Assembly (NCBI RefSeq): GCF_003018115.1
Contig: NZ_CP027457.1
DNA: 64,000 nucleotides
Reading direction: 5' to 3' (one strand)
From: Escherichia coli
Lineage (GTDB): Bacteria; Pseudomonadota; Gammaproteobacteria; Enterobacterales; Enterobacteriaceae
Under the pieces are notes generated by a model, which saw only the letters and a program-made list of their open reading frames with translations, ran no database searches and was not told the origin of the DNA. Made by a program: the position numbers and the translations under genes. Of this stretch, positions 663 to 35,267 are shown piece after piece. Numbering within the stretch: the stretch's first letter is position 1; every line of letters starts with the position of its first letter.

Positions 663-707
663 TGGTGGAGCTGGCGGGAGTTGAACCCGCGTCCGAAATT
701 CCTACAT
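663..707. repeat. attL: 45-bp duplicate of the ssrA 3' end (prophage core attachment repeat)
   Basis: TGGTGGAGCTGGCGGGAGTTGAACCCGCGTCCGAAATTCCTACAT identical to 34905..34949; identity ends at 708. Confidence 0.85.
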
Positions 708-792
708 ACCATTTTCACTATAATAAAAACATTAACTTGCGTTTAAAATCAGTAAGTTAGTATTATCTTGTGTTTGCTCGTTTTACTCATTT

Positions 793-1839
793 TTAATGCT
801 CTGTCGCCAATCTGTCGCCATTGTAGGTCAACGAAGGTTGAGCCTTCCCTTTGTTTGTTATAATTTCATCAAAGATAGCTGGATTATTATCTTTCAGTAA
901 TCTTGCTAGTATAATGATTTGCCCAGACGAGCCATCATCCTTGAATGAAAGGAAATTATCGGTAATATCAAGAATATCAATGGTAAATTTGAAGTAAGTT
1001 TCAATTGTATCGCCAAGCTCAATGCTGGACATGAAGTTAGTAACCATTTCATATCCATCAAAGTATAAAGTTGCATGTTCATTTAACTCCATTGGAGTTA
1101 GGCAAAGCATTCGATTAAGTTCGGATAAGTGTTTTTCTATTGAATGAAGAGATTGCATTTGACGGATTAAAACTTCGTCAAACTGAGAGCCATGATTAGA
1201 TGAATGTATCTTCTCTAGGTTTTTTAGTATATCAACCCAGTGATTATTCACTTCACGTATGTATTCTTTATCTGTATTTTTAGGCCGTCCCTTCTCTGGT
1301 GAGCTATTTATGAAAATATATCTATATAGATGTATTGGGTAGTTAATTTTATAACTTATCTCTTTAGTACCATAATGACGTTCGCGTTTAATGGTTTTGT
1401 TAGGTAAATTGGTGAAATAATCAGTAACGAACTTTAGATGGCTATAGTAGCTATCAGATAGATTCTTTTGCTTGGTTTCCTCAATTTGTCGGTTTGTTTG
1501 AACTGTGCGGTGTATGTTTGCTACGACAGCAACAAATGGTATGGACAAAGAAAGTAAGGCGATAGGAAGCTTGCTAATTGCAATGAAATTATTAAAGCCC
1601 TCACTATCAAATTGAGGGGAATGTCCAAGCCAGGAAAATATACCAAAGTATATCGCTGAAAATACAGGAATCCTAAGTGATTGTTTAAATAAGTATTGAC
1701 TTGTTAATGGCCTTTCATCCATGTTAAAGCCTTTTTTTGATACGCATAGATATAATTCAAGGCATATATATAAAAAATATATTATGATAAGTAAGTACGA
1801 TATCCATGGGTATTGTTGGATATAGTTATTAACAAACAC
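793..1839 (-). CDS. hypothetical membrane protein (about 3 N-terminal TM helices plus ~230-aa soluble domain); AT-rich cargo between int and attL
   Basis: 348-codon ORF with GTG start at 1837-1839 preceded by GGAG; hydrophobic segments WISYLLIIIYFLYICLELYL, IPVFSAIYFGIFSWLG, LPIALLSLSIPFVAVVANI; AT-rich relative to phage backbone; no recognisable catalytic motif. Confidence 0.55.
   Translation of the reverse strand: MFVNNYIQQYPWISYLLIIIYFLYICLELYLCVSKKGFNMDERPLTSQYLFKQSLRIPVFSAIYFGIFSWLGHSPQFDSEGFNNFIAISKLPIALLSLSIPFVAVVANIHRTVQTNRQIEETKQKNLSDSYYSHLKFVTDYFTNLPNKTIKRERHYGTKEISYKINYPIHLYRYIFINSSPEKGRPKNTDKEYIREVNNHWVDILKNLEKIHSSNHGSQFDEVLIRQMQSLHSIEKHLSELNRMLCLTPMELNEHATLYFDGYEMVTNFMSSIELGDTIETYFKFTIDILDITDNFLSFKDDGSSGQIIILARLLKDNNPAIFDEIITNKGKAQPSLTYNGDRLATEH
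801..821. repeat. tandem direct repeats CTGTCGCCA(A/T), candidate integrase arm-type (P') sites
   Basis: CTGTCGCCAAT CTGTCGCCAT about 95-115 bp from the core; same 10-mer occurs as an inverted pair at 34808..34846 near attR. Confidence 0.4.
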
Positions 1840-2868
1840 TTTCTAATTTTCTCCATCCAAGGTTAGCAAGAGGATTTTTGGTTACAGCATCTTCCAGATG
1901 GTCGGGAGCGAAGTGGGCGTAAATCATTGTCATTTTTATATCGACATGGCCCAGAATATCGCGCAGCACCAGTATGTTTCCGCCATTCATCATAAAGTGA
2001 CTTGCAAATGTATGTCGTAATACGTGTGTGCATTGCCCTTCTGGTAGCTCGATGCCAGCTCGTTTTACCGCACGTTCAAAAGCTTTCCTACAAGGTGTAA
2101 ATAATTTTCCCCTATTCTTAGGCAGTTCTTCATATAAATCCTTTGAAATAGGCACTGTTCGGTTTTTCTTTCCTTTAGTCTTGGTATAAGTGATACGGTA
2201 TTTTGACACCTGATGACTCTGCAGGTTTTCGGCTTCGCTCCAGCGTGCGCCGGTGGCCAAGCATATTTTTGCAATCATCAGCAGACTGGGGCTTTGAGAA
2301 TCAGCACAGGCATCCAGCAGACGTTTAATTTCTTCCGGGGTCAGGAACGCCAATTCACCCTCAGCAATTTTAAATGTTGGCAGCCCAGCAAGCGGGTTGG
2401 GGGCTGCCAGTGGCCCAGCTTTTTCAGTGTACCAAAAACAGATGATAGGTTGCGCTGTTCAAGATTTACCGTGCGGGGCTTAACGGGCGACATAAGCGTG
2501 CCATCTTCATTTCGTACTTCACCTTTTAACCGTGCTTCGCGGTATTTCGTAAACTCACCAGCTGTCAGTTCTGAGGCGATGGGATCGCCTAGACCATTAC
2601 AGATAATTCTAAGTTTCGCCATGAGGCGCTTGGGGTCTGCGAGTGTTTGACCATACAGGGAATACCACAGCTCAATTAATTCTGATAGATGTCGCCGATC
2701 TTCCTTTTCCCCTAGCCATGGTTTTTTGTTCACTTCTTCCATTGTGAAGCTTTCAAACGCAATGGCTTCGCCTTTGGTAGCAAATTGCTTACGCACGCGC
2801 TTACCATTGCGTCCATTGGGATAGCACTCACACAACCATTTTCCGTTCGGCTGTTTTCTGATGGTCAT
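1829..2868 (-). pseudogene. int: P2-family tyrosine integrase, interrupted by an apparent 1-nt frameshift in a G5 run (2399..2403)
   Basis: Two overlapping ORFs (2341..2868 N-terminal part, 1829..2353 catalytic part with ...HVLRHTFASHF...MIYAHF motifs); adding one G/C to the homopolymer gives a continuous ...HWQPPNPLAGLPTFKIAEGELAFLTPEEI... reading. Confidence 0.7.
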
Positions 2869-2871
2869 AAG

Positions 2872-3510
2872 TTAGAGGTTCTTGATTACTTTGACTGCAC
2901 GTCCTAGGACTTCCACATCATCTACAGAACATTCAAATGAAGTGTCATCTTGGTTAACTACTATTTTGTTTCCGGGTATGCGCGCAATTTTGACGATGCT
3001 TTTAACTCCGTCCATATCGACTAACCAGAAGCCATTACTGACTTGTTTAACAGACGTATCCACTACAAAGCTATCATTAGCTGTTTTAACAAATAAAGCG
3101 TTGGATGAGTCACCATCGAGCAGGCTGCTATCAAGAAGAATTTCATCACTTGGCTGCAGTTCGCCGTTCTTCAGTTCAACACGTTTGATGCTAGGAGCGA
3201 CGATCTTAGAAAGTGGTCTTACAGTGACAGGAGGTTCATTTTTGAGATTTGTTTCTTCGTTCTCACACGCATACATATCTCCTTGACCAGTAGCCAGCCA
3301 TAGAAGGGAAACTCCTGTTTCAAGGGCACATTGGATTACCCATTCGGCAGGAAAGCTATCCCTTAAGTATCTGTTAGCCATAGTGCTTTTTGATACTTCC
3401 AGATGTTCGCAGAGCTGCTGTCGTGAGCTGAAGTTGTAAGCCTTAATAAGCCTATTAATCGCATCGCGCCCACCACTATCATTCCCCGCCTTGATTAAAC
3501 TCATAATCAA
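2872..3510 (-). CDS. cI: phage 186 CI-type immunity repressor (N-terminal HTH, C-terminal oligomerisation domain)
   Basis: 212-aa ORF divergent from apl/cII; position next to int; HTH-like SRQQLCEHLEVSKSTMANRYL. Confidence 0.75.
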   Translation of the reverse strand: MIMSLIKAGNDSGGRDAINRLIKAYNFSSRQQLCEHLEVSKSTMANRYLRDSFPAEWVIQCALETGVSLLWLATGQGDMYACENEETNLKNEPPVTVRPLSKIVAPSIKRVELKNGELQPSDEILLDSSLLDGDSSNALFVKTANDSFVVDTSVKQVSNGFWLVDMDGVKSIVKIARIPGNKIVVNQDDTSFECSVDDVEVLGRAVKVIKNL

Positions 3511-3620
3511 ACCTCTTGATGTATATAAAAAGTGATCCTAATATCCATCCATGGTTTGAAAAGCAAAACCAAACCACATAAAACAAGATAAAACGAAACC
3601 AAACTAAGAGATACTGCACT
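3511..3620. promoter_or_regulatory. lysis-lysogeny switch region with face-to-face promoters/operators between cI and apl; candidate rightward promoter TTGAAA(3556-3561)-17 bp-TAAAAC(3579-3584)
   Basis: AT-rich 110-bp divergent intergenic region between repressor and excisionase/Cox-like gene. Confidence 0.35.
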
Positions 3621-4412: not shown

Positions 4413-4613
4413 ATGCTTACGAAAGAACCATCATTTGCATCACTGCTGGTTAAACAAAGCCCGGCAATGCACTACGGTCACGGCTGGATCATGGGTGAGG
4501 ATGGTAAACGCTGGCATCCGTGCCGTTCACAAGATGAATTGCTGGCAGAACTATCTACGAAAAAACGGGGGAACAAATGGCTATTGAAGGCGCTGCGGCG
4601 ACTGTTCCATTAA
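4413..4613 (+). CDS. hypothetical early protein (186 fil position)
   Basis: ATG at 4413 preceded by GAGGTG; 66 codons; early operon. Confidence 0.45.
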   Translation: MLTKEPSFASLLVKQSPAMHYGHGWIMGEDGKRWHPCRSQDELLAELSTKKRGNKWLLKALRRLFH

Positions 4614-4918
4614 GCCCCGGTGAACGCCTGAATGGACTTAATCATATTGCGGAGTTAAGGGCGAAAGTTTTTGGTCTTAATATTGAGTCAGAGCTTGAGC
4701 GGTTTATTAAAGATATGCGTGATCCACGGGATATTAATAGCGAACAAAATAAACGGGCACTGGCTGCCATATTCTTTATGGCAAAAATTCCAGCTGAACG
4801 TCATAGCATCAGCATTAATGAGCTGACCACTGACGAAAAGCGGGAGTTGATTAAAGCAATGAATCATTTTCGTGCAGTGGTGAGCTTATTTCCCAGACGG
4901 TTAACCATGCCGAATTAA
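4577..4918 (+). CDS. hypothetical early protein (186 dhr position)
   Basis: 113-aa ORF with RBS, in early operon. Confidence 0.5.
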   Translation: MAIEGAAATVPLSPGERLNGLNHIAELRAKVFGLNIESELERFIKDMRDPRDINSEQNKRALAAIFFMAKIPAERHSISINELTTDEKRELIKAMNHFRAVVSLFPRRLTMPN

Positions 4919-4985
4919 TCAACTAATGAAATTAATGGCGTAAACCCGCCGGGCATCCCTTTATCTAAATTCAGGAGAATTGATT

Positions 4986-5219
4986 ATGCGTAATATTGAA
5001 ACCCTCACGACTAAAACCGGACCGGATGATGCAGGTCTTAATCTTTTACTGACAGAGGCCCGTCTTGAAGAATGCCGGGCAAGGGCTGAAGCAATGGCAG
5101 CTCGCCTTGATAGTCTGGCGTGTCATATTACATCCCGCCAGCTAAACCACGTCGAAGCGGCAGAACTGCTGCGTGTGACTGCTGAAGCAATCCAGAACGA
5201 AGCGCAGGAGATCCACTAA
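4986..5219 (+). CDS. hypothetical early protein
   Basis: ATG at 4986 preceded by CAGGAG; stop overlaps next start (TAATG). Confidence 0.5.
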   Translation: MRNIETLTTKTGPDDAGLNLLLTEARLEECRARAEAMAARLDSLACHITSRQLNHVEAAELLRVTAEAIQNEAQEIH

Positions 5220-5446
5220 TGGCTGATGCAATGGATCTCGTACAGCAGCGCGTTGAAGAAGAACGCCAGCGCCATATCCGTGCTGCCCGTGCCAGAACGC
5301 CGGGCGTGTCACGCGTGCTTTGCATTGAATGTGAAGCGCCAATTCCGCCAGCAAGACGCCGCGCCATTCCGGGAGTGCAGCTTTGCATTACCTGCCAGGA
5401 AATAGCAGAGCTGAAAGGCAAACATTACAACGGAGGTGCTGTATGA
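5219..5446 (+). CDS. TraR/DksA-family C4 zinc-finger protein
   Basis: CxxC...CxxC pattern (CIECEAPIPPARRRAIPGVQLCITCQ); 75 aa; translationally coupled to neighbours. Confidence 0.7.
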   Translation: MADAMDLVQQRVEEERQRHIRAARARTPGVSRVLCIECEAPIPPARRRAIPGVQLCITCQEIAELKGKHYNGGAV

Positions 5447-6300
5447 GCACCATCCTGAAATGGGCGGGTAATAAAACCGCCGTTATGTCCGAACTGAAAA
5501 AATACCTTCCTGCTGGCCCGCGACTGGTTGAACCTTTCGCGGGTTCCTGTGCAGTGATGATGGAGACGGATTACCCAAGCTATCTGGTAGCGGATATTAA
5601 TCCTGATTTAATCAACCTCTATAAAAAGGTTGCTGCTGATTGTGAGGTGTTTATATCTCGCGCCAGAATTTTGTTTGAGGAAGCAAACAGTGAGCTGGCT
5701 TATTACAACATAAGGCAGGAGTTTAATTACTCAACTGAAATTACTGATTTCATGAAATCGGTATATTTCCTGTATCTCAATCGTCATGGTTACCGTGGGT
5801 TATGTCGCTATAACAAGAGCGGGCATTTCAACATTCCCTACGGTAATTATAAAAAACCGTATTTCCCTGAAAAAGAAATTCGCGCATTTGCAGAGAAAGC
5901 CCAGCGGGCAACGTTTATCTGCGCCAGCTTTGATGAAACGCTGGCGATGTTGAAGGCGGGGGATGTGGTGTATTGCGATCCGCCGTATGACGGTACGTTT
6001 TCCGGCTATCACACTGATGGCTTCACTGAGGATGACCAGTATCACCTGGCATCCGTTCTTGAACATCGATCATCTGAAGGTCATCCGGTCATTGTTTCTA
6101 ACAGTGACACATCCCTGATTCGTTCGCTGTATCGCAATTTCACTCACCACTACATCAAGGCAAAACGCAGCATCGGCGTGTCGGCTGGCGAGAGTAAATC
6201 TGCAACAGAAATCATTGCTGTTTCCGGGGCGCGCTGCTGGGTGGGATTTGATCCTTCGCGTGGCGTGGATAGTTCTGCTGTGTACGAGGTGCGTGTATGA
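5443..6300 (+). CDS. dam: DNA adenine methyltransferase (Dam-like, probable GATC N6-adenine MTase), orphan
   Basis: Motif [10 protein letters not shown] and motif IV DPPY; strong similarity pattern to E. coli Dam ([24 protein letters not shown]); ATG 5443 with GGAGGTG RBS. Confidence 0.85.
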
Positions 6301-8711
6301 GTCATGACGATATGAGCAACTCTAGCGGCTTTAACGAGGCCGCAGCAGCATTTTCATGGAACGGCCCGAAAAAGGCCATTAACCCTTATCTGGACCCGGC
6401 GGAAGTTGCGCCGGAGTCTGCACTTTCAAACATGATCACTCTGTACGCTGCCGATAACGAGCAGGAACAGCTGCGCCGCGATGCACTGAGTGAGCAGGTC
6501 TGGGAGCGTTATTTCTTTAATGAATCCCGTGATCCTGTCCAGCGCGAAATGGAGCAGGATAAGCTCATTAGCCGCGCAAAGCTTGCGCATGAGCAGCAGC
6601 GTTTTAACCCGGACATGGTCATTCTGGCAGATGTCAGCGCCCAGCCTACCCACATCAGCAAGCCGCTGATGCAACGTATCGAATACTTCAGTAGCCTGGG
6701 CAGGCCAAAGGCTTATTCCTGCTATTTGCGTGAGACGATTAAGCCATGTCTGGAGCGACTGGATTGTGTACGCGACAGTCAGCTATCCGCTTCTTTCCGT
6801 TTTATGGCAAGCCATCAAGGGCTTGAGGGCCTGCTGATCCTGCCTGAAATGAGTCAGGATCAGGTAAAACGCCTGTCCACCCTGGTAGCAGCGCATATGA
6901 GCATGTGTCTTGAGGTCGCTTGTGGTGATTTGTATGCCACCGATGACGTTAAGCCAGAAGAAATCCGCAAGGCATGGGAAAAGGTGGCAGCGGAAACCCT
7001 GCGTCTGGATGTTATCCCGCCTGCGTTTGAGAAACTTCGTCGGAAAAGAAACCGCCGCAAACCAGTGCCCTATGAACTCATACCGGGTTCGATGGCACGT
7101 ATGCTTTGCGCCGACTGGTGGTATCGAAAATTGTGGAAGATGCGTTGCGAATGGCGGGAAGAGCAGTTGCGTGCTGTCTGTCTGGTCAGCAAAAAAGCAT
7201 CTCCCTATGTCAGCTATGAAGCAGTGACGCATAAACGTGAGCAGCGCCGCAAGTCGCTGGAGTTTTTCCGTTCTCATGAACTGGTGAACGAAGACGGAGA
7301 CACGCTGGATATGGAAGATGTGGTAAACGCCAGCAGCAGCAACCCGGCACATCGCCGAAATGAGATGATGGCCTGCGTTAAAGGTCTGGAGCTTATCGCG
7401 GAAATGCGTGGTGACTGCGCCGTTTTCTACACTATCACCTGTCCGTCACGTTTCCATTCCACGCTAAATAACGGCAGGCCCAACCCGACCTGGACAAATG
7501 CGACTGTAAGACAAAGCAGTGATTATCTGGTCGGCATGTTTGCTGCATTTCGTAAGGCGATGCACAAAGCCGGGTTGCGTTGGTATGGCGTGCGGGTGGC
7601 TGAGCCGCACCATGACGGTACTGTGCACTGGCATCTTATGTGCTTCATGCGTAAAAAAGACCGCCGCGCCATCACTGCATTACTGCGTAAGTTTGCCATC
7701 CGTGAAGACCGCGAGGAGCTGGGCAATAACACTGGGCCGCGCTTTAAGTCTGAGCTGATTAATCCGCGCAAAGGAACGCCGACAAGCTACATCGCGAAAT
7801 ATATCAGTAAGAACATTGACGGGCGTGGTCTGGCTGGCGAGATCAGCAAGGAAACGGGTAAATCTCTGCGTGATAACGCTGAATACGTGAATGCCTGGGC
7901 GTCTCTGCATCGTGTTCAGCAATTCCGCTTCTTTGGTATTCCGGGGCGTCAGACTTACCGTGAACTGCGATTGCTGGCTGGTCAGGCGGCAAGGCTACAG
8001 GGTGACAAAAAAGCAGGTGCGCCGGTACTGGATAACCCACGTCTTGATGCCATCCTGGCTGCTGCTGATGCTGGCTGTTTTGCGACCTACATCATGAAGC
8101 AGGGCGGCGTGCTGGTTCCCCGCAAATATCACCTTATCAGAACAGCTTATGAAATTAACGAAGAGCCGACCGCCTATGGCGATCACGGTATTCGTATTTA
8201 TGGCATCTGGTCACCCATTGCAGAGGGCAAGATCTGCACTCATGCAGTGAAGTGGAAAATGGTTAGTAAGGCCGTTGACGTTCAGGAGGCGGCAGCCGAC
8301 CAGGGCGCTTGCGCCCCTTGGACTCGTGGCAATAACTGTCCCCTTGCTGAAAATTTGAACCAACAAGGGAAAGACAAATCAGCTGATGGGGACTCCAGAA
8401 CGGATATTACCCGTATGAATGACAAGGAGTTGCACGATTACCTGCACAGTATGAGCAAAAAAGAGCGCCGGGAACTGGCTGCAAGGTTACGCCAGGTGAA
8501 ACCGAAACGGCGTAAAGACTACAAACAGCGAATTACAGACCATCAGCGACAGCAGCTCGTCTATGAACTGAAGTCCAGGGGATTTGATGGCAGCGAGAAA
8601 GAAGTCGATTTGCTCCTTCGCGGCGGCAGTATTCCGTCAGGAGCAGGCCTGCGTATCTTCTATCGGAACCAGCGTCTGAAGGAAGATGATAAGTGGCGGA
8701 ACCTGTATTAA
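6297..8711 (+). CDS. A: replication initiation endonuclease (P2 gpA-like rolling-circle initiator)
   Basis: 804-aa ORF at the end of the early operon; contains the gpA-family AKYISKN region and HWHLMCFM motif. Confidence 0.8.
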
Positions 8712-8805: not shown

Positions 8806-8821
8806 CTGTAAATATAAACAG
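8806..8821 (+). promoter_or_regulatory. LexA box (SOS operator) CTGTAAATATAAACAG
   Basis: Perfect CTG-N10-CAG with AT-rich centre about 45 bp upstream of the 8864 start; weaker second copy GTGGTTATGTATACAG at 8821..8836. Confidence 0.7.
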
Positions 8822-9488: not shown

Positions 9489-9824
9489 TTACGAATGATC
9501 ATTCTGTTTAGTCTTCATGAGAAAATCCCGAATCTTTGCCAAGTTTGAATTTTCGGGGATTGAATCCATGTACGGATCACGCTCAAACACTAATTGCTCA
9601 GATTCAACGAAAGCCTGCCACTCTACTGGGTCTAGCTCAAATCCCATTGCTGTCATATCACTTTCATCTTCCCCCTCGATCCAGTGGACTAAATAAAACA
9701 ATTCATCATCAGGAGAATCATCCTCACCATCAACAATATCAACATCGGTTACAGTGATACGTAGGGTGGGATCGATTTTTGAGACATAAATTCCTAACTG
9801 TGGTATAGGGGGAATATTGTTCAT
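9489..9824 (-). CDS. hypothetical highly acidic small protein (about 26 D/E in 111 aa), candidate DNA mimic, anti-restriction or immunity factor
   Basis: Strong RBS AAGGAG 6 nt before ATG (9822-9824); divergent from the DUF262 gene across the cos region; AT-rich. Confidence 0.6.
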   Translation of the reverse strand: MNNIPPIPQLGIYVSKIDPTLRITVTDVDIVDGEDDSPDDELFYLVHWIEGEDESDMTAMGFELDPVEWQAFVESEQLVFERDPYMDSIPENSNLAKIRDFLMKTKQNDHS

Positions 9825-10203: not shown

Positions 10204-10222
10204 GGCGTGGCGGGGATACGAG
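10204..10222. other. candidate cos cohesive-end site GGCGTGGCGGGGATACGAG
   Basis: First 13 nt match the P2/186 cohesive-end sequence as recalled (GGCG(A/T)GGCGGGGAAAGCA...); lies between the right-end tum region and Q as in P2/186. Confidence 0.4.
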
Positions 10223-14970: not shown

Positions 14971-15016
14971 GGCACAAACCTACAGCCTTGAATGAAGGCT
15001 TTCCCCGCCTGCGGTT

Positions 15017-24835: not shown

Positions 24836-24855
24836 TTTTATTCAGGGTGATTTAT

Positions 24856-25873: not shown

Positions 25874-26370
25874 CAGGCTGCCCTCACGATATAATTAAAT
25901 GCAATATTACGCGGACGCGTTTCTGAGGCTGCGGCACCTAAACCAGCCACTGATTGTTTATATGTTTTAAAGGTTCCATAATCCGGTGCTGGTAATCCGG
26001 CATCGTTTGTGTTTCCTCTTTTGATAATGTCAGTGCCACTATTTACCCAGCTTTCATCAAAATAGAAATTAATAGTTGCATCAGTCACAATCGTGGATCT
26101 TGACGGTAATCCATGAGCATGATCCTCCGTTGCATATCCCTGAATACTTAAAATAGAGCGACCTGTATCAATCCCCGCCCGTCATCCCAGCCACGAATAA
26201 ACTCACCACGTAAATCAGGCAATTTATTTGTCGGGTAAACTTTTGCCAGTTCCGGGTATTCTTCAGCAGAAAAAGCTGCACCATTGCATTTCAGCCAGCC
26301 TGTAGGCGGAGTGGCTGAAGGCCACGGAACAGGGACACCAACAGGTAATGCAGAGCCTTCTCCCAAACCA
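25873..26370 (-). other. alternative tail-fibre variable C-terminal segment (H'), promoterless, with apparent frameshift at C4 run 26173..26176
   Basis: Minus-strand reading from the crossover site: ...GLGEGSALPVGVPVPWPSATPPTGWLKCNGAAFSAEEYPELAKVYPTNKLPDLRGEFIRGWDDGRG, then frame shifts to ...DTGRSILSIQGYATEDHAHGLPSRSTIVTDATINFYFDE... Confidence 0.6.
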
Positions 26371-26383
26371 ACGTTTATGAAAA
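26358..26383. repeat. invertase crossover site (right), TTCTCCCAAACC-AA-CGTTTATGAAAA
   Basis: Inverted relative to left site; core dinucleotide AA vs TT. Confidence 0.6.
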
Positions 26384-26438: not shown

Positions 26439-27005
26439 ATGCTTATTGGCTATGTACGCGTGTCAACAAATGACCAGAACACCGATTTGCAACGTAATGC
26501 ACTGAACTGCGCGGGATGTGAGCGGATTTTTGAGGACAAAATCAGTGGCACTAAGTCCGACAGACCGGGGCTTAAAAAACTGCTCAGGACACTATCGGCA
26601 GGTGACACACTGGTTGTCTGGAAGCTGGACAGGTTGGGGCGCAGTATGCAGCATCTTGTTACGCTGATAGAAGAGTTGCGCCAGCGTGGCGTGAATTTCC
26701 GAAGCCTGACTGACAGTATTGATACCAGTACCCCAATGGGCCGTTTCTTTTTTCATGTCATGGGTGCCCTGGCTGAAATGGAACGCGAACTGATAGTTGA
26801 ACGTACCAGGGCAGGGCTGGCTGCAGCTCGTGCCAAAGGCAGAGTAGGTGGGCGTCGTCCTAAGTTGACCACCGAACAGTGGGCACAGATTGGACGTTTA
26901 CTCGAGGCCGGAGAATCAAGACAGCGTATTGCACTGATTTTTGATGTGGGCGTTTCTACCATTTATAGAAAATTTCCGGTGAATGAGAGCAATGAATCGC
27001 CCTGA
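26439..27005 (+). CDS. serine DNA invertase (Gin/Hin/Cin/Pin family)
   Basis: MLIGYVRVSTNDQNTDLQRNAL (catalytic Ser in VRVST) and C-terminal HTH; 188 aa. Confidence 0.9.
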   Translation: MLIGYVRVSTNDQNTDLQRNALNCAGCERIFEDKISGTKSDRPGLKKLLRTLSAGDTLVVWKLDRLGRSMQHLVTLIEELRQRGVNFRSLTDSIDTSTPMGRFFFHVMGALAEMERELIVERTRAGLAAARAKGRVGGRRPKLTTEQWAQIGRLLEAGESRQRIALIFDVGVSTIYRKFPVNESNESP

Positions 27006-27147: not shown

Positions 27148-28320
27148 ATGGCTCAGGATTACCACCACGGGGTGCGCGTTGTTGAAGTCAACGAAGGCAC
27201 CCGATCTATTACCACGGTGAGCACCGCCATCGTGGGTATGGTCTGCACGGGCGATGATGCCGATGCAAAAATGTTTCCTCTTAATAAACCCGTGCTGATC
27301 ACTGATGTGCTGACTGCCAGCGGTAAAGCGGGTGAGTCAGGTACTCTGGCCCGTTCGCTGGATGCCATCGCTGACCAGGCAAAACCCGTGACCATTGTTG
27401 TGCGTGTGCCGCAGGGTGAAACGGAAGACGAAACCACGACCAATATCATCGGCGCAGTGACTGCTGAAGGTAAAAAAACAGGTATGAAAGCCCTGTTATC
27501 TGCCCAGTCACAGCTCGGCGTTAAACCGCGCATTCTCGGCGTGCCAGGCCACGACACCAAGGCGGTAGCTACTGAGTTGCTGAGCGTGGCGCAAAGCCTG
27601 CGTGGATTTGCTTACCTGTCAGCGTATGGCTGCAAGACAGTGCAGGAGGCGATCACTTACCGCGAAAACTTCAGCCAGCGCGAAGGGATGCTGATCTGGC
27701 CTGACTTTACTGGTTGGGACACGGTGCTGAATGCCGAAGCAACGGCATATGCCGCCGCCCGTGCGCTTGGTCTGCGCGCCAAAATTGACGAGCAGACCGG
27801 ATGGCACAAAAGCCTGTCCAACGTGGGCGTGAACGGTGTCACCGGAATTTCTGCAGATGTGTTCTGGGATCTGCAGGACCCGGCAACCGATGCAGGTCTG
27901 CTGAACCAGAACGACGTCACCACGCTTGTGCGTAAAGACGGTTTCCGCTTCTGGGGTTCCCGCTGCCTGAGTGATGACCCGCTCTTTGCCTTCGAAAACT
28001 ACACCCGCACGGCGCAGGTGCTGATGGACACGATGGCAGAAGCACACATGTGGGCGGTGGATAAACCGCTTAACCCGTCGCTGGCCCGCGACATTATCGA
28101 AGGTATCCGCGCCAAAATGCGCAGCCTGGTCAGTCAGGGCTATCTCATTGGTGGTGATTGCTGGCTGGATGAGTCGGTGAACGACAAAGACACGCTGAAA
28201 GCCGGAAAACTCACCATCGACTACGACTACACGCCAGTGCCGCCACTTGAAAACCTGATGCTGCGTCAGCGCATCACCGATCAGTACCTGGTGAATTTCG
28301 CCAGCCAGGTCAGCGCGTAA
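27148..28320 (+). CDS. FI: tail sheath protein (P2 gpFI-like)
   Basis: 390 aa; strong RBS AGGAGG; synteny. Confidence 0.85.
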
Positions 28321-28329
28321 GGGGACAAC

Positions 28330-28845
28330 ATGGCATTACCACGCAAATTAAAACACCTGAACCTGTTTAACGACGGGAACAACTGGCAGGGGATCGTTGA
28401 GTCGCTGACGCTGCCGAAATTTACCCGCAAATATGAGAAGTATCGCGGCGGCGGAATGCCGGGTGCGGTGGATGTGGATCTGGGGCTTGATGACAGTGCG
28501 CTGGACACAGAATTTTCCATTGGTGGTACTGAATTGCTGCTGTTTAAACAGATGGGTAAAGCCACGGTGGATGGCATCCAGCTGCGCTTTACCGGCTCTA
28601 TTCAGCGTGACGATACCGGGGAAGTGCAGGCCGTGGAGCTTGTCGTGCGTGGACGTCACAAAGAAGTGGATTCCGGCGAGTGGAAGACGGGCGAAAGCAA
28701 CACCACCAAAGTGACCAGTACCAACAGCTACGCGAAGCTGACCATCAATGGTGAGGTGCTCTATGAAGTGGACCTTATCAACATGGTGGAAATTGTGGAC
28801 GGTGTGGACCTGATGGAAGCGCACCGCAACGCCCTCGGCCTCTGA
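28330..28845 (+). CDS. FII: tail tube protein (P2 gpFII-like)
   Basis: 171 aa; synteny. Confidence 0.85.
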   Translation: MALPRKLKHLNLFNDGNNWQGIVESLTLPKFTRKYEKYRGGGMPGAVDVDLGLDDSALDTEFSIGGTELLLFKQMGKATVDGIQLRFTGSIQRDDTGEVQAVELVVRGRHKEVDSGEWKTGESNTTKVTSTNSYAKLTINGEVLYEVDLINMVEIVDGVDLMEAHRNALGL

Positions 28846-28899
28846 TATATCTGAACGGCGCGGGATACCGCGCCAGAACCCAATTGACAGGACAGCAAA

Positions 28900-29202
28900 A
28901 TGAGCGATAAGCAGACTGAAAAGACCATTCAACTGGATACCCCCATCAAGCGCGGTAAAACAGAAATCACCGAAATTGTGCTGCGTAAACCGCAGTCCGG
29001 TGCGCTGCGCGGTACACGCCTGCAGGCCATTATGGATATGGATGTAAACGCGATGATGACCGTGATCCCCCGCATCTCCAGCCCGGCGCTGACTGCACAG
29101 GAAATTGCAGAGATGGACCCGGCAGATCTCACTGCCATGTCGGTTGAGGTTGTCACTTTTTTGTTGAAGAAGTCGGTGCTTGCCGGTTTACCGACAGCCT
29201 GA
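28900..29202 (+). CDS. E: tail assembly chaperone (P2 gpE-like)
   Basis: 100 aa, precedes tape measure gene. Confidence 0.75.
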   Translation: MSDKQTEKTIQLDTPIKRGKTEITEIVLRKPQSGALRGTRLQAIMDMDVNAMMTVIPRISSPALTAQEIAEMDPADLTAMSVEVVTFLLKKSVLAGLPTA

Positions 29203-29336
29203 CGGTTGACGATCTGGTGGCAGATATCGCCACCATTTTTCACTGGCCGCCATCCGTTACTGACGTTATGCCGCTGACCGAAGTGCTGGAATGGCGGTAT
29301 AAAGCGATTCAGAGAAGCGGGGCCAACGATGAGTGA
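29157..29336 (+). other. programmed -1 translational frameshift: slippery heptamer TTTTTTG (29157..29163) and E' extension ending at TGA 29334..29336
   Basis: T6G slip site near end of E; -1 frame is open for 59 codons and ends as T begins (G/GT-like tail chaperone arrangement). Confidence 0.65.
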
Positions 29337-32300
29337 TAACAACCTGCGTCTGCAGGTCATTCTTAATGCGGTTGACAAGCTCACCCGCCCATTTCGATCT
29401 GCGCAGGCCAGTTCAAGAGAACTGGCTGCTGCTGTCAAAAAATCCCGCGATGCAATAAAGCAGCTTGATCAGGCCGGGAGCAGTCTGGACAGCTTCCGAA
29501 AGCTGCAGGCAGAAAATCAGAAATTAGGCGACAGGCTGAACTATGCCCGCCAGCGTGCAAATTTGCTCAGTCAGGAACTGGGAGCGATGGGGCCGCCTTC
29601 GCAACGTAAGGTTGTTGCTCTGGGCCGTCAACGGCTGGCTGTTCAGCGCCTGGAAGAACGCCAGAAAAAGCTGCAGCAGCAGACGGCGCTTGTGCGTGCT
29701 GAACTGTACCGGGCGGGAATTTCTGCGAAAGACGATGCGGGAGCAACTGCCCGTTTAGCCCGTGAAACATCACGTTATAACCAGGAACTTTCGAAACAGG
29801 AGGCGCGGCTGAAGCGACTGGGGGAAGCTCAGCGCAGGATGAATGCAGCGCGTGCCAGTTATGCCCGTTCGCTGGAGGTGCGTGATCGTATTGCAGGTGC
29901 CGGAGCCACCACCACGGCTGCAGGGCTGGCAATGGGTGCGCCAGTGATGGCGGCAGTAAAAAGCTATACCAGCATGGAAGATGCCATGAAAGGTGTGGCA
30001 AAGCAGGTCAATGGTCTGCGTGACGATAATGGCAACCGCACTGCACGTTTTTATGAAATGCAGGATGCCATCAAGGCTGCCAGCGAACAGTTGCCGATGG
30101 AAAACGGTGCGGTGGACTTCGCTGCACTGGTTGAAGGTGGTGCGCGCATGAACGTCGCAAATCCTGACGACAGCTGGGAAGATCAGAAACGTGACCTGCT
30201 GGCCTTCGCCAGTACGACAGCAAAGGCGGCAACAGCCTTTGAGCTGCCAGCGGATGAACTGTCAGAAAGTCTGGGGAAAATCGCCCAGCTCTACAAAATC
30301 CCCACCCGCAATATTGAACAGCTCGGTGATGCGCTGAACTATCTGGATGATAACGCCATGTCGAAAGGGGCAGACATCATTGATGTGATGCAACGTCTGG
30401 GCGGTGTGGCTGACCGTCTGGATTATCGTAAAGCGGCGGCGCTGGGTTCCACCTTCCTGACACTGGGCGCTGCGCCAGAGGTTGCAGCCAGTGCAGCAAA
30501 CGCGATGGTGCGTGAATTGTCCATTGCCACCATGCAAAGCAAGAGTTTCTTTGAAGGGATGAATCTGCTGAAACTCAATCCTGAAGTGATTGAAAAGCAG
30601 ATGACGAAGGATGCGATGGGAACCATCCAGCGCGTGCTGGAGAAGGTAAACGCGCTGCCGCAGGACAAGCGCCTGTCTGCCATGACTATGTTGTTTGGTA
30701 AAGAGTTTGGCGATGACGCGGCGAAACTGGCAAACAACCTGCCGGAACTGCAGCGTCAGTTAAAATTGACAGCGGGCAATGATGCGCTTGGCTCCATGCA
30801 GAAAGAATCCGACATTAACAAGGATTCACTTTCTGCGCAGTGGTTGCTGGTCAAAACCGGAGCGCAGAACACCTTCAGCAGCCTGGGCGAAACGCTGCGC
30901 CAGCCGCTGATGGATATTCTGTACACGGTGAAAAGCGTCACGGGGGCGTTGCGTCGCTGGGTGGAAGCTAACCCGGAACTGACAGGCACACTGATGAAAG
31001 CATCGGCTGTTGTGGCTGCGGTTACCGTCGGCCTCGGCACCTTAGCGGTGGCGCTGGCTGCAGTGCTGGGGCCGCTGGCAGTGATCCGTCTGGGATTCTC
31101 TGTGTTGGGTATCAAAACGTTATCTTCCGTTACGGCAGCAGTAACTCGAACCAGCAGCGCGTTGTCCTGGCTGGCTGGCGCACCACTGGCACTGCTGCGA
31201 CGCGGGCTTGCTTCATCGGGCAACGCCGCAGGTTTACTTACTGCGCCGTTGTCGTCTTTGCGCCGCACGGCATCACTGACGGGAAATGTCCTGAAAACTG
31301 TAGCAGGTGCGCCGGTTGCACTTTTGCGGTCTGGATTATCCGGTTTACGTGCGGTTGCTGTGATGTTTATGAATCCACTGGCAGCACTACGCGGCGGGCT
31401 GGCTGCCGCAGGCACGGTGCTGCGAGTACTGGCATCTGGTCCGCTGGCGATGCTGCGCGTTGCCCTGTATGCCGTATCTGGTCTGTTAGGTGCTCTGCTC
31501 AGTCCGATAGGTCTTGTGGTTACTGCACTGGCGGGTGTGGCACTGGTTGTCTGGAAATACTGGCAACCCATCACCGCATTTCTCGGTGGCGTGGTGGAAG
31601 GATTCAAAGCGGCGGCAGGTCCCATCAGTGCAGCGTTCGAACCGCTTAAGCCTGTGTTCCAGTGGATTGGTGACAAAGTGCAGGCGCTGTGGGGCTGGTT
31701 TACTGATCTGCTGACGCCCGTTAAGTCGACTTCTGCCGAACTGCAGAGCGCAGCGGCAATGGGGCGACGATTCGGGGAGGCACTGGCGGAAGGGCTGAAT
31801 ATGGTTATGCATCCGCTGGACTCCCTGAAATCTGGCGTTTCCTGGTTGCTGGATAAACTCGGCATTGTCAGTAAAGAGGCTGCAAAGGCGAAACTGCCGG
31901 AAAGCGTGACGCGTCAGCAACCTGCGACGGTGAATGCAGACGGTAAAGTGATGATGCCATCGGGTGGTTTTCCGTCATGGGGATATGGCTTTGCGGGGAT
32001 GTATGACAGCGGCGGCTATATCCCGCGCGGGCAGTTTGGCATCGTCGGTGAAAACGGGCCGGAAATTGTTAACGGCCCGGCAAATGTGACCAGCCGGAGA
32101 AATACAGCTGCACTGGCTGCCGTTGTTGCCGGAATGATGGGCGTTGCTGCCGCGCCTGCAGAGCTTCCACCGTTGCACCCTTTGGCACTTCCCGCGAAAG
32201 GCGGCGAAGCGATGGTGAGTCGTGCAGCCACTGTGCCGCCCGTTCAACGGATTGAGGCACCGATGCAGATCATCATTCAGACGCAGCCAGGACAAAGTGC

Positions 32301-32406
32301 GCAGGATATTGCGCGGGAGGTGGCCCGCCAGCTTGATGAACGTGAACGCAGGCTGAAGGCAAAAGCCAGGAGTAACTACAGCGATCAGGGGGGATACGAC
32401 GCATGA
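29329..32406 (+). CDS. T: tail tape measure protein (P2 gpT-like)
   Basis: 1025 aa, Ala/Leu-rich repeats, C-terminal region. Confidence 0.85.
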   Translation: MSDNNLRLQVILNAVDKLTRPFRSAQASSRELAAAVKKSRDAIKQLDQAGSSLDSFRKLQAENQKLGDRLNYARQRANLLSQELGAMGPPSQRKVVALGRQRLAVQRLEERQKKLQQQTALVRAELYRAGISAKDDAGATARLARETSRYNQELSKQEARLKRLGEAQRRMNAARASYARSLEVRDRIAGAGATTTAAGLAMGAPVMAAVKSYTSMEDAMKGVAKQVNGLRDDNGNRTARFYEMQDAIKAASEQLPMENGAVDFAALVEGGARMNVANPDDSWEDQKRDLLAFASTTAKAATAFELPADELSESLGKIAQLYKIPTRNIEQLGDALNYLDDNAMSKGADIIDVMQRLGGVADRLDYRKAAALGSTFLTLGAAPEVAASAANAMVRELSIATMQSKSFFEGMNLLKLNPEVIEKQMTKDAMGTIQRVLEKVNALPQDKRLSAMTMLFGKEFGDDAAKLANNLPELQRQLKLTAGNDALGSMQKESDINKDSLSAQWLLVKTGAQNTFSSLGETLRQPLMDILYTVKSVTGALRRWVEANPELTGTLMKASAVVAAVTVGLGTLAVALAAVLGPLAVIRLGFSVLGIKTLSSVTAAVTRTSSALSWLAGAPLALLRRGLASSGNAAGLLTAPLSSLRRTASLTGNVLKTVAGAPVALLRSGLSGLRAVAVMFMNPLAALRGGLAAAGTVLRVLASGPLAMLRVALYAVSGLLGALLSPIGLVVTALAGVALVVWKYWQPITAFLGGVVEGFKAAAGPISAAFEPLKPVFQWIGDKVQALWGWFTDLLTPVKSTSAELQSAAAMGRRFGEALAEGLNMVMHPLDSLKSGVSWLLDKLGIVSKEAAKAKLPESVTRQQPATVNADGKVMMPSGGFPSWGYGFAGMYDSGGYIPRGQFGIVGENGPEIVNGPANVTSRRNTAALAAVVAGMMGVAAAPAELPPLHPLALPAKGGEAMVSRAATVPPVQRIEAPMQIIIQTQPGQSAQDIAREVARQLDERERRLKAKARSNYSDQGGYDA

Positions 32407-32888
32407 TGATGGTGCTGGGATTGTACGTGTTTATGCTGCGCACCGTGCCGTATCAGGAGCTGCAGTATCAACGCAGCTGGCGACATGCGGCAAACAGCCG
32501 GGTAAACCGACGTCCGTCCACGCAGTTTCTGGGACCGGACAACGACATGCTGACGCTTTCCGGTGTTCTTATGCCGGAGATAACAGGCGGCAGGCTGTCG
32601 TTGCTGGCACTGGAGCAGATGGCAGAACAGGGGAAAGCATGGCCCCTGATTGAAGGCAGCGGCACGATTTACGGCATGTATGTGATTGAGGGACTGAATC
32701 AGACTAAAACGGAGTTTTTCCGCGACGGTATGCCGCGCCGGATTGAGTTCACCCTGTCGCTCAAACGAGTGGATGAATCCCTGTCCGATATGTTCGGTGA
32801 TCTCAGTGCGCAACTGAATAATCTGCAGGACACGGCAACGTCTGCCTTAAGCGATATCAGTAAAACGGTGGGAGGGCTGCTGTCGTGA
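32403..32888 (+). CDS. U: tail protein (P2 gpU-like)
   Basis: 161 aa; synteny. Confidence 0.8.
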   Translation: MMMVLGLYVFMLRTVPYQELQYQRSWRHAANSRVNRRPSTQFLGPDNDMLTLSGVLMPEITGGRLSLLALEQMAEQGKAWPLIEGSGTIYGMYVIEGLNQTKTEFFRDGMPRRIEFTLSLKRVDESLSDMFGDLSAQLNNLQDTATSALSDISKTVGGLLS

Positions 32889-33985
32889 ATTTCAGCTCTG
32901 AACTGCTTAACAAAGGCAACAAAACTCCCGCATTCAGCATCAGCATTGAGGGCAGGGATATCACCACTGTGCTGGATAACCGCCTGATGAGTTTGACGCT
33001 GACGGATAACCGGGGCTTTGAAGCGGACCAGCTTGATCTGGAGTTGGATGACGCTGACGGAAAAATCGTGCTGCCGCGCCGTGGTGCGGTCATTACGCTG
33101 GCGCTGGGCTGGAAGGGGCAGCCGCTTTTCCCGAAAGGGGCATTCACAGTGGACGAGATTGAACACACTGGCGCACCGGACCGCCTGACTATCCGGGCGC
33201 GAAGTGCTGATTTTCGGGAAACGCTGAATACCCGCCGTGAAAAATCGTGGCATAAGACCACCGTCGGGGAAGTGGTGAAGGAAATAGCCGCGCGGCACAA
33301 GCTGAAGATGGCACTGGGTAAAGACCTGTCGGATAAACCCGTGGAGCATATAGACCAGACTAATGAGAGTGACGGCAGTTTTCTGATGCGGCTGGCGCGA
33401 CAGTACGGTGCCATCGCGTCGGTGAAAAATGGCAATCTGTTATTCATCCGGCAGGGGCAGGGCAAAAGCGCCACTGGTAAACCTCTGCCAGTGATCACTA
33501 TCACACGCAAGGACGGCGACAGTCACCGATTTACCCTGGCAGATCGCGGAGCCTACACGGGCGTAATTGCCAGCTGGTTACATACCCGCGAACCTGCGAA
33601 GAAAGAAAGCACCACGGTGAAGCGTAAGCGCAGAACTAAGAAGCAGAAGAAAGAGCCAGAAGCGAAGCAGGGCGATTACCTGGTGGGTACGGATGAAAAC
33701 GTGCTGGTACTTAATCGCACTTATGCCAACCGGAGCAACGCCGAACGAGCGGCGAAAATGCAGTGGGAACGCCTGCAACGCGGCGTTGCGTCATTTTCGC
33801 TACAACTGGCAGAAGGGCGGGCAGATCTCTACACGGAAATGCCTGTGAAGGTCAGCGGTTTTAAACAGCCGATAGATAATGCGGAATGGACCATTACGAC
33901 TCTGACACATACCGTCAGCCCGGATAACGGTTTTACAACCAGTATTGAACTCGAAGTGAAGATTGATGATCTTGAAATGGAATAA
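32885..33985 (+). CDS. D: tail protein / late gene D (P2 gpD-like)
   Basis: 366 aa; synteny; GTG start. Confidence 0.8.
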   Translation: MNFSSELLNKGNKTPAFSISIEGRDITTVLDNRLMSLTLTDNRGFEADQLDLELDDADGKIVLPRRGAVITLALGWKGQPLFPKGAFTVDEIEHTGAPDRLTIRARSADFRETLNTRREKSWHKTTVGEVVKEIAARHKLKMALGKDLSDKPVEHIDQTNESDGSFLMRLARQYGAIASVKNGNLLFIRQGQGKSATGKPLPVITITRKDGDSHRFTLADRGAYTGVIASWLHTREPAKKESTTVKRKRRTKKQKKEPEAKQGDYLVGTDENVLVLNRTYANRSNAERAAKMQWERLQRGVASFSLQLAEGRADLYTEMPVKVSGFKQPIDNAEWTITTLTHTVSPDNGFTTSIELEVKIDDLEME

Positions 33986-34053
33986 AGTGTTCTCAATATT
34001 GATATTTTGTGTATCATTACAATGATTCTGATAGCAAAGGTAGGGATCTGGAT

Positions 34054-34272
34054 ATGATGAATTGTCCAAAGTGTGGTCATGCGGCACACACAAGGAGCAG
34101 TTTTCAAGTAACTGAAAGCACCAAAGAGCGTTACTGCCAGTGCCAAAATATTAACTGCGGGAGCACTTTTGTTACTCATGAAACAGTGGTCCGGTTTATT
34201 GTGACACCCGCACTGATTGCTACTGCTCCTCCACATCCATTGCCAGGTGGTCAGGGGCATATGAATTTTTGA
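34054..34272 (+). CDS. ogr: Ogr/Delta-family zinc-finger late transcription activator
   Basis: MMNCPKCGHAAHTRSS...ERYCQCQNINCGSTF...HPLPGG closely parallels P2 Ogr (CPLCQHAAH...YHQCQNVNCSATF...HPLPSG). Confidence 0.85.
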   Translation: MMNCPKCGHAAHTRSSFQVTESTKERYCQCQNINCGSTFVTHETVVRFIVTPALIATAPPHPLPGGQGHMNF

Positions 34273-34279
34273 GAAAGAG

Positions 34280-34300
34280 AACCTGCTACGGCAGGTTTTT
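34280..34300. terminator. bidirectional Rho-independent terminator
   Basis: AACCTGC-tacg-GCAGGTT followed by TTTT; serves ogr (+) and the convergent WYL-BRCT gene (-). Confidence 0.65.
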
Positions 34301-34781
34301 ATTCATCTGGGATCTCACCCGTTTCAAGAAAATGTATAAAGCCAGGCTCATCTATGATGATTGTGCCTTTCATCCTGGCTGCCGATACTTTTGATGGGCC
34401 TGCATTGTAACCGCAACAGAGCATCTGAAGGCTTTGGGTTACAGAGGTTCTTACCGTTAATCCTTGTTCATTCGCCTTATCAACCAATCTTTCTTTATCT
34501 GCTTTCTTAAATCCGGTGAAACACACATCGAATGTATTTTTTTTCGGACCAGACTGCTTAGTGAGATGTGAGTAGCTTTCGGGGAGGAATGACGCGCATT
34601 CCTGAATGGCTTGTTCTGGTGAATCGTACTGTTTAAGAATGCGGTCTTTTCGGAAGGTTTTTATTCGATCGGTGTTCTTACAAATGCCCTGTATATGATT
34701 TTCGCTATAACTGATGCTCTGTATAGAGTGAACACCGATACGACCATTTGCATTGATGTAAACAAAGTGAAGTTCTTCCAT
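34299..34781 (-). CDS. small WYL-domain plus BRCT-domain protein, cargo between ogr and attR
   Basis: 160 aa; N-terminal FVYINANGRIGVHSI...GICKNTDRIKTFRKDRI (WYL-like, ends in the FRxDRI signature); C-terminal DVCFTGFKKADKERLVDKANEQGLTVRTSVTQSLQMLCCGYNAGPSKVSAARMKGTIIIDEPGF (BRCT-like); RBS AGAGG before ATG at 34779-34781. Confidence 0.6.
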   Translation of the reverse strand: MEELHFVYINANGRIGVHSIQSISYSENHIQGICKNTDRIKTFRKDRILKQYDSPEQAIQECASFLPESYSHLTKQSGPKKNTFDVCFTGFKKADKERLVDKANEQGLTVRTSVTQSLQMLCCGYNAGPSKVSAARMKGTIIIDEPGFIHFLETGEIPDE

Positions 34782-34807
34782 GTGAAACCTCTTTGCATGA
34801 TCTCAAG

Positions 34808-34846
34808 ATGGCGACAGGCAAGATGGACGCAAAAGTCTGTCGCCAT
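34808..34846. repeat. inverted pair of the CTGTCGCCAT motif (ATGGCGACAG ... CTGTCGCCAT), candidate P-arm integrase binding sites / hairpin
   Basis: Perfect 10-bp inverted repeat with 19-nt spacer, 60-100 bp from attR core; same motif as 801..821. Confidence 0.4.
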
Positions 34847-34904
34847 TTTGCCGCCACTACCAAAGAAAAAGGGGCTACGCTTTCACGTAACCCCTTGATT
34901 TATT

Positions 34905-35267
34905 TGGTGGAGCTGGCGGGAGTTGAACCCGCGTCCGAAATTCCTACATCCTCGGTACTACATGCTTAGTCAGTCTTTACATTCGCTTGCCAGCTGCGGA
35001 CGGACACGCCACTAACAAACTAGCCTGATTAAGTTTTAACGCTTCAACCCCTGGCAGGGCTTCCACGCGATCTCTTTTGGGTTTGACCTCTCTTGATCCC
35101 CGTCCTAAGAGCGGAGGCTAGGGAGAGAGGGCTCTAAGCAGGTTATTAAGCTGCTAAAGCGTAGTTTTCGTCGTTTGCGACTATTTTTTGCGGCTTTTTA
35201 CGAGGCCAACCGCCCCTCGGCATGCACCTTGGGTTTCGCAAATCCCGTCGAATCCAGAATCAGCCCC
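34905..35267 (-). ncRNA. ssrA: tmRNA (SsrA), complete; 3' 45 nt form attR
   Basis: Reverse complement matches the E. coli tmRNA from GGGGCTGATTCTGGATTCGACGGG to ...GGTTCAACTCCCGCCAGCTCCACCA, including the tag-encoding region. Confidence 0.95.

Follow-up and report, generated by a model that had tools for sequence, protein, structure and literature searches.

A 186/Fels-2-type prophage at the 3' end of ssrA in Escherichia coli, probably defective, with intact accessory genes

Table 1 of PMC10107115 places elements with P4-, P2- and CTX-type integrases all at ssrA, the gene for transfer-messenger RNA (tmRNA), and the same paper notes that the P2-integrase elements Fels-2, SopE-phi and SpaX leave an undamaged CGCCAGCTCCACCA copy there. 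The paper cites Williams 2003 and Pelludat 2003 for the sharing of ssrA, so that use of the site by both P4-integrase islands and P2-integrase phages has been on record since 2003. Here we describe a prophage at this site in Escherichia coli, carried on contig NZ_CP027457.1 (assembly GCF_003018115.1), of which a stretch of 64,000 nucleotides (nt), hereafter the window, was analyzed. Between two copies of the ssrA 3' end lies a complete P2-family genome of 34.2 kb. We report its anatomy, boundaries, homologies and lesions as observed in the DNA; the best explanation, in which we have considerable confidence, is a 186/Fels-2-type phage of the Peduoviridae inserted in the 3' end of ssrA, the resident copy being defective and its accessory genes intact.

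Judged by shared sequence, the closest classical relative is Fels-2 (Felsduovirus; also SopE-phi), which occupies ssrA of S. Typhimurium. The 47-bp attP core of Fels-2 is identical to the repeat that bounds our prophage (46 of 46 nt), the two elements have the same orientation relative to ssrA, and the attachment (att) copy at attR is intact in both, as PMC10107115 lists for P2-integrase elements; the undamaged CGCCAGCTCCACCA copy is thus found here as well. The likeness extends to the integrase (Int, 93% amino acid (aa) identity), the repressor CI (93%), Apl (100%) and CII (92%), and also to a split tum/DinI SOS operon, a Dam methylase, an invertase with an invertible fibre segment, and a colinear gene order. 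The shared core genes are 68–100% identical in aa sequence, bar the variable tail-fibre assembly gene. The differences are a nucleotide identity of ~74–87%, the host, which here is E. coli, and the hotspot cargo. In addition, our prophage has an extra gene beside each att site, for a 348-aa membrane protein (att to int) and for a BRCT protein (ogr to att). Further, int and both fibre tips are frameshifted in our prophage.

The K-12 element CP4-57 fills the same interval, from the ssrA 3' end to the ypjA flank ATCATGATTGGACGG, but is unrelated. Its integrase is of the P4 type, with Arm-DNA-bind_3, Phage_int_M and catalytic domains, and adjoins ssrA, whereas the int of our prophage lies distal to ssrA; and unlike our prophage CP4-57 has no virion genes. 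The attR copy of CP4-57 is ~14 bp long and damaged (CCGCCAGC-CCACCA, annotated psaA), in contrast to the undamaged 46 bp found here. Because the CP4-57 copy is short and damaged, excision of CP4-57 inactivates tmRNA; excision of our prophage, given its exact att copies, would spare tmRNA.

Boundaries at the ssrA 3' end

A 46-bp direct repeat, TTGGTGGAGCTGGCGGGAGTTGAACCCGCGTCCGAAATTCCTACAT, whose copies at 662-707 and 34904-34949 match exactly, bounds the prophage. The runner-up direct repeat within positions 1-36000 is 34 nt long at 74% identity, which excludes a chance origin of the 46-bp repeat. The distal copy (662..707) is a displaced copy of the ssrA 3' end and equals the first 46 nt of the 47-bp attP of Fels-2. 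The proximal copy (34904..34949) overlaps the tmRNA 3' end and forms the 3' end of the functional ssrA gene, which lies on the minus strand at 34905..35267, is intact by ARAGORN and Rfam (tag ANDENYALAA), and is full length (RF00023, 294.9 bits, model positions 1-374). Beyond the distal copy stands the chromosomal flank, in which the 3' end of an autotransporter gene (14..502, plus strand; Pfam Autotransporter beta-domain, E=5.8e-26) is ypjA/EhaD by the annotation of matching genomes. An Rfam scan of the whole window at gathering thresholds found tmRNA, rRNA, tRNA, the Phe leader, RyfD and StyR-44, and no phage-borne RNA family.

A synthetic empty site was made by joining window positions 201-661 to 34904-35400 and was searched for in 5426 complete E. 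coli genomes. It occurs uninterrupted in 1386 of them, at 99.1–99.8% identity among the matches listed, and the matches are annotated as ssrA adjoining ypjA. The joined flanks thus support the prophage boundaries to the base. The sequence-only reading of this DNA had proposed that 45-bp repeats of the tmRNA end bound the prophage, and that comparison with empty-site strains should decide the matter: the boundaries stand by both the exact repeat and the empty-site genomes, and the length of the repeat is corrected to 46 bp. Its placing of the autotransporter gene in the K-12 CP4-57 context is also borne out, the flank ATCATGATTGGACGGTGTAAGG standing after CP4-57 in K-12. For the left junction of the prophage, the best match among complete E. 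coli genomes is 98.7%, which shows that the strain of the window is not one of that collection.

Close to the att repeats are motifs of the kind expected for integrase arm sites. Two tandem copies of TGTCGCCAWT lie at 802..822 on the plus strand; the motif resembles the 186 arm-site consensus YAYCGCCAYTY annotated in NC_001317. The window holds four copies of it where 0.44 would be expected; three of them fall within 150 bp of the att repeats, and the motif is present beside both att copies. On the model drawn from these features, a tyrosine integrase would have recombined attP with the ssrA 3' end. The attP would carry the last 46–47 nt of ssrA, so that ssrA would be rebuilt intact on integration, and the displaced 46-bp fragment would end beside ypjA.

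Lesions in int and in the tail-fibre tips

The int gene (1829..2868, minus strand), which encodes a tyrosine recombinase of the P2/Fels-2 subfamily, is a pseudogene. By comparison with the intact 346-aa genes of CFSAN051542 and TW10690, it has lost one nucleotide near 2407, reading CACTGG-CAGCC where the intact alleles read CACTGGTCAGCC; there is no homopolymer at the site. An intact 346-aa Int is recorded as WP_000155498.1. In the window the gene is split by the deletion into a 175-aa open reading frame (ORF) with Int_N and a separate 174-aa ORF with the catalytic Phage_integrase domain. Twenty-four contigs from NCBI, ENA and Logan assemblies encode exactly this 175-aa product, and three copies that were retrieved are 99.8–99.97% identical to the window, with few single-nucleotide polymorphisms (SNPs) and no gaps. 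Because the same split allele recurs on 24 contigs, the lesion is real and is inherited in a lineage. General assembly indel noise was considered as the cause of the frameshifts and rejected, since the 29-kb chromosomal part of the window shows one indel in ~25 kb aligned to the closest genome. The intact allele of TW10690 is the one that is 93% identical to Fels-2 Int, and the element belongs to the Fels-2/SopE-phi-type ssrA integration module by descent, not by current function.

Two further lesions lie in the fibre region. Gene H, the last of the baseplate and tail-fibre genes V, W, J, I and H (20989..24835, plus strand), is frameshifted near 24617 by a change from A3 to A4, leaving a truncated product of 425 aa. 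Its distal part falls in an invertible segment (24449..26383) that holds two alternative fibre tips and two assembly genes between 27-nt inverted repeats (24449-24475 and 26357-26383); the segment is equivalent to the Mu-like crossover site annotated in gene K of 186. The alternative tip is frameshifted as well, by a missing G near 26176. All phage genes other than int and the two fibre tips are full length.

With int split and both fibre tips frameshifted, the prophage is probably defective. We infer its loss of mobility from the deletion, which parts the N-terminal domain of Int from the catalytic domain and would so immobilize the prophage. Most likely, then, the prophage is locked in place and would be unable to make infectious, adsorbing particles, and the polymerase chain reaction (PCR) for excised circles that the sequence-only reading had proposed would probably be negative.

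The main competing explanation is that the prophage is fully functional and inducible, the frameshifts being sequencing errors or bypassed, or Int working as two interacting fragments. In its favor, the 40-odd other genes are full length, no lesion affects Apl, CI or the SOS operon, the H frameshift amounts to one changed A-run length on a single contig, and a TTG-initiated ORF (1829-2353) still encodes the Int catalytic domain. But the int deletion lies outside any homopolymer and recurs on the 24 contigs, which differ by SNPs and not by gaps, and the chromosomal part of the window is almost free of indels. To our knowledge, split tyrosine integrases are not known as active. We consider a functional prophage unlikely.

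Several points nonetheless count against a defective prophage with functional cargo. That excision has been lost is a conclusion from sequence alone, and a related integrase encoded elsewhere in the genome, outside the window, could act in trans. The H frameshift, being a homopolymer change found on one public contig only, is possibly a sequencing error, and the 87-aa ORF (26148-26411) left by the frameshift in the alternative tip is absent from the public protein collection. As to the cargo, the SLFN_AlbA_2 match in the 593-aa accessory protein discussed below has a score of 19.8 bits, under the 25.3 cut-off, and a defence role for the cargo genes is a prediction from sequence.

Layout, relatives and use of ssrA by other elements

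Between the repeats, 45 genes match genes of Fels-2, Cartapus or E. coli prophages, and the order is colinear, gene for gene, with Cartapus, the TW10690 prophage and Fels-2, in agreement with the P2/186-family identity first proposed. The prophage is an ordinary, already known Fels-2-like type of the P2/186 family at a classic att site, and the type is common in E. coli.

The lysogeny region begins with the CI immunity repressor (2875..3504, minus strand; Pfam Phage_CI_repr and Phage_CI_C), of 186/Fels-2 type, which is 93% identical in aa sequence to that of Fels-2, 59% to that of Cartapus and 30% to that of 186. On the plus strand follow apl (3621-3863), a PHROG Cox-like excisionase with 100% aa identity to Fels-2; cII (3896-4405), with Pfam Phage_CP76 and 92% identity; and fil (4413-4613), with 84%. 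As a set, CI, Apl, CII and Fil are 84–100% identical to their Fels-2 and 30–82% to their 186 counterparts, and P2 has no match. The early operon (4577..8711, plus strand) comprises genes for a DUF5347 protein, a DUF2732 protein and a TraR/DksA-like protein, then dam (5443-6300, plus strand) and A (6297-8711, plus strand). The A product, an 804-aa replication endonuclease of the GpA rolling-circle type, is 96% identical to that of Cartapus and 32–35% to A of P2 and 186.

Downstream of A is a predicted LexA box, CTGTAAATATAAACAG (8806..8821, plus strand), a perfect CTGT-N8-ACAG match 43 nt upstream of the SOS operon and in a position corresponding to p95/LexA of 186. Only two perfect boxes occur in the 64 kb; the other, at 39094-39109 upstream of recN, served as an internal positive control for the scan. 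The operon holds two short genes on the plus strand, one for a putative 62-aa antirepressor (8864-9052; 97% aa identity to Fels-2 STM2728) and one for a 77-aa DinI-like protein (9063-9296; Pfam DinI; 100% to Fels-2 STM2726.1), which we assign as the upstream and downstream halves of a split tum. In Fels-2 and PSP3, tum is split by a stop codon into an upstream antirepressor half and a downstream DinI homologue (PMC3121763). A 186-type Tum split by frameshift was considered and dropped, and the Fels-2/PSP3 arrangement is preferred because the N-terminal half of 186 Tum has no counterpart in the 62-aa ORF. The 186-like lysogeny and SOS module of the earlier reading thus gains support, in a Fels-2 version. 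How these genes are regulated we infer from the analogous phages Fels-2, PSP3 and 186: lysogeny would be held by the Fels-2-type CI repressor, induction would proceed through the LexA-repressed operon of small antirepressor and DinI-like protein, and the CI/Apl/CII switch would be followed by activation of the P2-type late genes by an Ogr-type activator.

The presumed cos region of cohesive ends (10204..10222) aligns with the genome-end junction of Cartapus, annotated as a P2-like cos. The head, packaging and lysis genes (12179..20920) consist of Q and P on the minus strand and, on the plus strand, O, N, M, L, X, holin, lysozyme, LysA-like, LysB/C, R and S, all of them single-frame, full-length matches to proteins of TW10690, Cartapus and Fels-2. 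The packaging and head cluster, with Q and P divergent from O, N, M and L, is P2-type and is 96–99% identical to Cartapus. The S-V slot (20920-20989) is empty here and is filled by an accessory gene in P2 (orf30), in Cartapus (gp14) and in the E. coli W prophage. The contractile tail and baseplate genes V, W, J, I, H, G, FI, FII, E/E', T, U and D, with a zinc-finger activator of the Ogr/Delta type, are in P2 order. A Gin/Cin-type DNA invertase gene (26439..27005, plus strand; Pfam Resolvase and HTH_7; 98% aa identity to the Cartapus invertase) lies beside the invertible fibre segment, and FI, FII, E/E', T, U and D, then the late activator gene ogr (34054-34272, plus strand), complete the plus-strand tail block (27148..34272). 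The G+C content (GC) is 54–62% over most of the late genes (13–24 kb and 27–34 kb), dips to 48–49% in the tail-fibre/invertase segment, and is 34–35% in the two main cargo genes.

Phage 186 (Eganvirus) shares with our prophage the CI/Apl/CII/Fil switch, an SOS operon in the interval from A to cos (LexA-controlled in 186, and predicted to be so here), an Ogr-like B gene, late genes of P2 type and the Mu-like fibre crossover site. It differs in integrating in ileY, in having Tum as a single 146-aa protein, which is split in our prophage, in its distant CI (30% identity), and in being without Dam, invertase and the BRCT gene.

The sequence-only reading had seen the element as a mixture of 186-like lysogeny and P2-like morphogenesis. 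Both components are present; they do not make a hybrid, and the arrangement is the standard 186/Fels-2 layout. A recent recombinant, in which a 186 lysogeny module had been joined to a P2 morphogenesis module, would account for the matches of CI, Apl, CII, Fil and the DinI-like protein in 186 and their absence from P2, and for Int (55% identity to 186 versus 39% to P2) and TraR (69% versus 46%). P2-family phages do swap modules, as the different integrase of the E. coli W prophage and the 59% identity of CI to Cartapus indicate. The structural proteins, however, are no closer to P2 than to 186: against both phages Q and P are 61–63% and O, N, M and L 40–59% identical in aa sequence, and over the structural set identities of ~40–69% are equidistant, e.g., 59% and 59% for N, 63% and 63% for P, and 69% and 68% for FI. 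Further, the whole genome is colinear with Fels-2. Because 186 itself has P2-type late genes, the mixture is the ordinary and ancestral 186/Fels-2 layout, and a new hybrid is very improbable.

In a megablast search against 50,697 phage records, Cartapus (Peduoviridae, Elveevirus) and the Klebsiella phages Kp48xx matched at 94–96% nucleotide identity over 72–84% of the first 24 kb. With Cartapus our prophage shares most proteins at 84–100% identity, and also the BRCT gene, Dam, the invertase and cos. It differs from Cartapus in immunity type, since CI is only 59% identical, and in its slots: Cartapus has a RES-domain gene between att and int, a DUF4145 gene between cos and the portal gene, and the S-V slot gene; it is without the LysA-like gene. 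Against Elveevirus (Cartapus and 4LV2017) the first 24.3 kb are 77% covered at 94.5% identity, or ~73% over that stretch; the remaining 10 kb, compared at the protein level only, are 88–100% identical. The International Committee on Taxonomy of Viruses (ICTV) sets the genus threshold at 70% nucleotide identity or more across the whole genome, and on these comparisons the prophage probably belongs to Elveevirus.

E. coli W carries the same phage backbone with a different integrase, adjoining rcdA (NC_017635.1, 956976-983856), from which it follows that the integration module can be swapped independently of the backbone. That prophage also has a KAP-family NTPase gene between int and cI. A related prophage genome was deposited as a separate replicon in CP019275.1, a 37,446-bp record of E. 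coli 13P477T, where this phage type may exist excised from, or outside, the chromosome.

How ssrA is used in E. coli was seen in a junction census of the 5426 complete genomes. The empty site, with ssrA joined to the ypjA flank, was found in 1386, the K-12-type ssrA-intA junction in 624, and the ogr-BRCT-ssrA junction of this prophage type in 164; the late region of the prophage, as a whole, is present in 853. To call ssrA the site normally used by CP4-57-type elements, as the sequence-only reading did, is thus a K-12-centric description. The claim that unrelated elements share the site is sound: IntA, of the P4 type, aligns with the Fels-2-type Int only in the catalytic core, at 28% identity. 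In F9792, the closest relative by core genome, a further and different island occupies ssrA. In TW10690 (34650-36181) the site holds a tandem array of ssrA, a prophage of this type, a 45-bp ssrA copy and a P4-type integrase island, so both element types co-reside at ssrA. The existence of this array, and the fact that some left-junction matches begin at 512 instead of 662, might suggest a composite locus in which a P2-like prophage is accompanied by what is left of a CP4-57-type island, either inside the repeats or in the flanking DNA, but the idea can practically be set aside, as the window has no P4-type integrase or island gene between ypjA and ssrA, positions 503-661 match the flank found in K-12 and in strains with an empty site, and the ssrA end is present in two copies only.

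Accessory genes in the P2 hotspots

P2 prophages have described hotspots for accessory genes between GpA and the portal gene, between int and att, and between int and the primase gene (PMC9122126; bioRxiv 10.64898/2026.02.27.708500). The accessory genes of our prophage occupy hotspots already described, and the slots vary among its relatives. The sequence-only reading counted at least four cargo genes, which is correct; the intact accessory genes include a DUF262-Schlafen-like gene, an orphan membrane protein gene, dam and a BRCT protein gene. PADLOC recognized no complete known defence system, giving single-domain hits only (NsnA-like, 2TM effector and orphan methyltransferase). The intact accessory genes probably serve anti-phage or lysogenic-conversion functions.

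The cos-portal hotspot contains a gene (10357..12138, plus strand; 35% GC) for a 593-aa protein with a well-supported DUF262/GmrSD_N domain and a weaker AlbA_2/Schlafen-like one. Pfam E values are 1.6e-22 for GmrSD_N and 1.2e-3 for the sub-threshold SLFN_AlbA_2, and PADLOC gives NsnA at 8e-31. Most homologues, at ~60% identity, have both PF04326 and PF03235, and the family is strongly conserved at that level from Enterobacterales to cyanobacteria. With the model of the protein, Foldseek found BrxU (E=6e-4), DIP2311 and SLFN11/14 domains; PDB sequences searched with a DUF262-family profile yielded no match. EcoSlfn7, an E. coli DUF262-Schlafen fusion, was shown to defend against T7 and other phages, the reported phenotype being exerted through tRNA cleavage (PMC13056530). 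The 593-aa protein is probably of the same architecture class. The hotspot segment 9300-12180 (2.9 kb) matches the E. coli W prophage at 100% identity. TW10690, whose prophage is 97–99% identical to ours, holds in the same slot another DUF262 protein of 593 aa (23802-25583); it was considered as an orthologue and rejected, as the two are unrelated bar the DGxQR/DUF262 motif.

Between att and int, on the minus strand, is the gene for the orphan membrane protein (793..1839; 34% GC), 348 aa long from a GTG start or 309 aa from an ATG at 1722. Its last codons overlap the integrase arm-type repeats at 802-822. The protein falls in phrog_17460, a PHROG of unknown function, and has a weak PADLOC match to a 2TM effector (E=2e-4); neither Pfam nor NCBIfam gave a match. 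The family comprises 42 clusters, and all named members are from enterobacterial genera. An AF2 model (pLDDT 82.8) has N-terminal helices and a helical/beta C-terminal part, and a Foldseek search of the model against PDB returned no hit with E<0.5. The slot is hypervariable, and in relatives it is filled by GapS1 (Ecol_AZ147), the RES-domain gene (Cartapus) or other hypothetical genes (GF47 and KE58). We suggest, tentatively and with more doubt than conviction, that the 348-aa protein could be a previously unrecognized single-gene anti-phage system of the abortive-infection type, perhaps retained by selection together with the DUF262-Schlafen-like gene on a prophage that the host lineage has immobilized by loss of the integrase.

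Two smaller accessory genes lie elsewhere. Between ogr and att, on the minus strand, is the gene for a 160-aa protein (34299..34781; phrog_2561) whose C-terminal domain resembles BRCT (Pfam BRCT, 1.1e-3, short of the curated threshold); annotations differ, naming it DNA ligase, exonuclease or BRCT protein. The gene is present in Cartapus (gp32) and TW10690 and absent from Fels-2, 186 and P2; like dam, it is conserved throughout the Cartapus-like group. An accessory ORF of 111 aa (9489..9824, minus strand; phrog_17127), in the stretch from the SOS operon to cos, had no NCBIfam or Pfam match; the gene under this segment is called a DUF8087 domain-containing protein in the annotation of some genomes.

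In sum, the locus re-discovers ssrA as a hotspot used by Fels-2-like phages, and beyond annotation that finding matters little. What is added is the defective state and the identification of the cargo. The prophage is a clean example of one recently grounded, with loss of the integrase inherited in a lineage and the cargo intact, and two of its cargo genes, which occupy known defence hotspots of P2 phages, are candidates for anti-phage screening.

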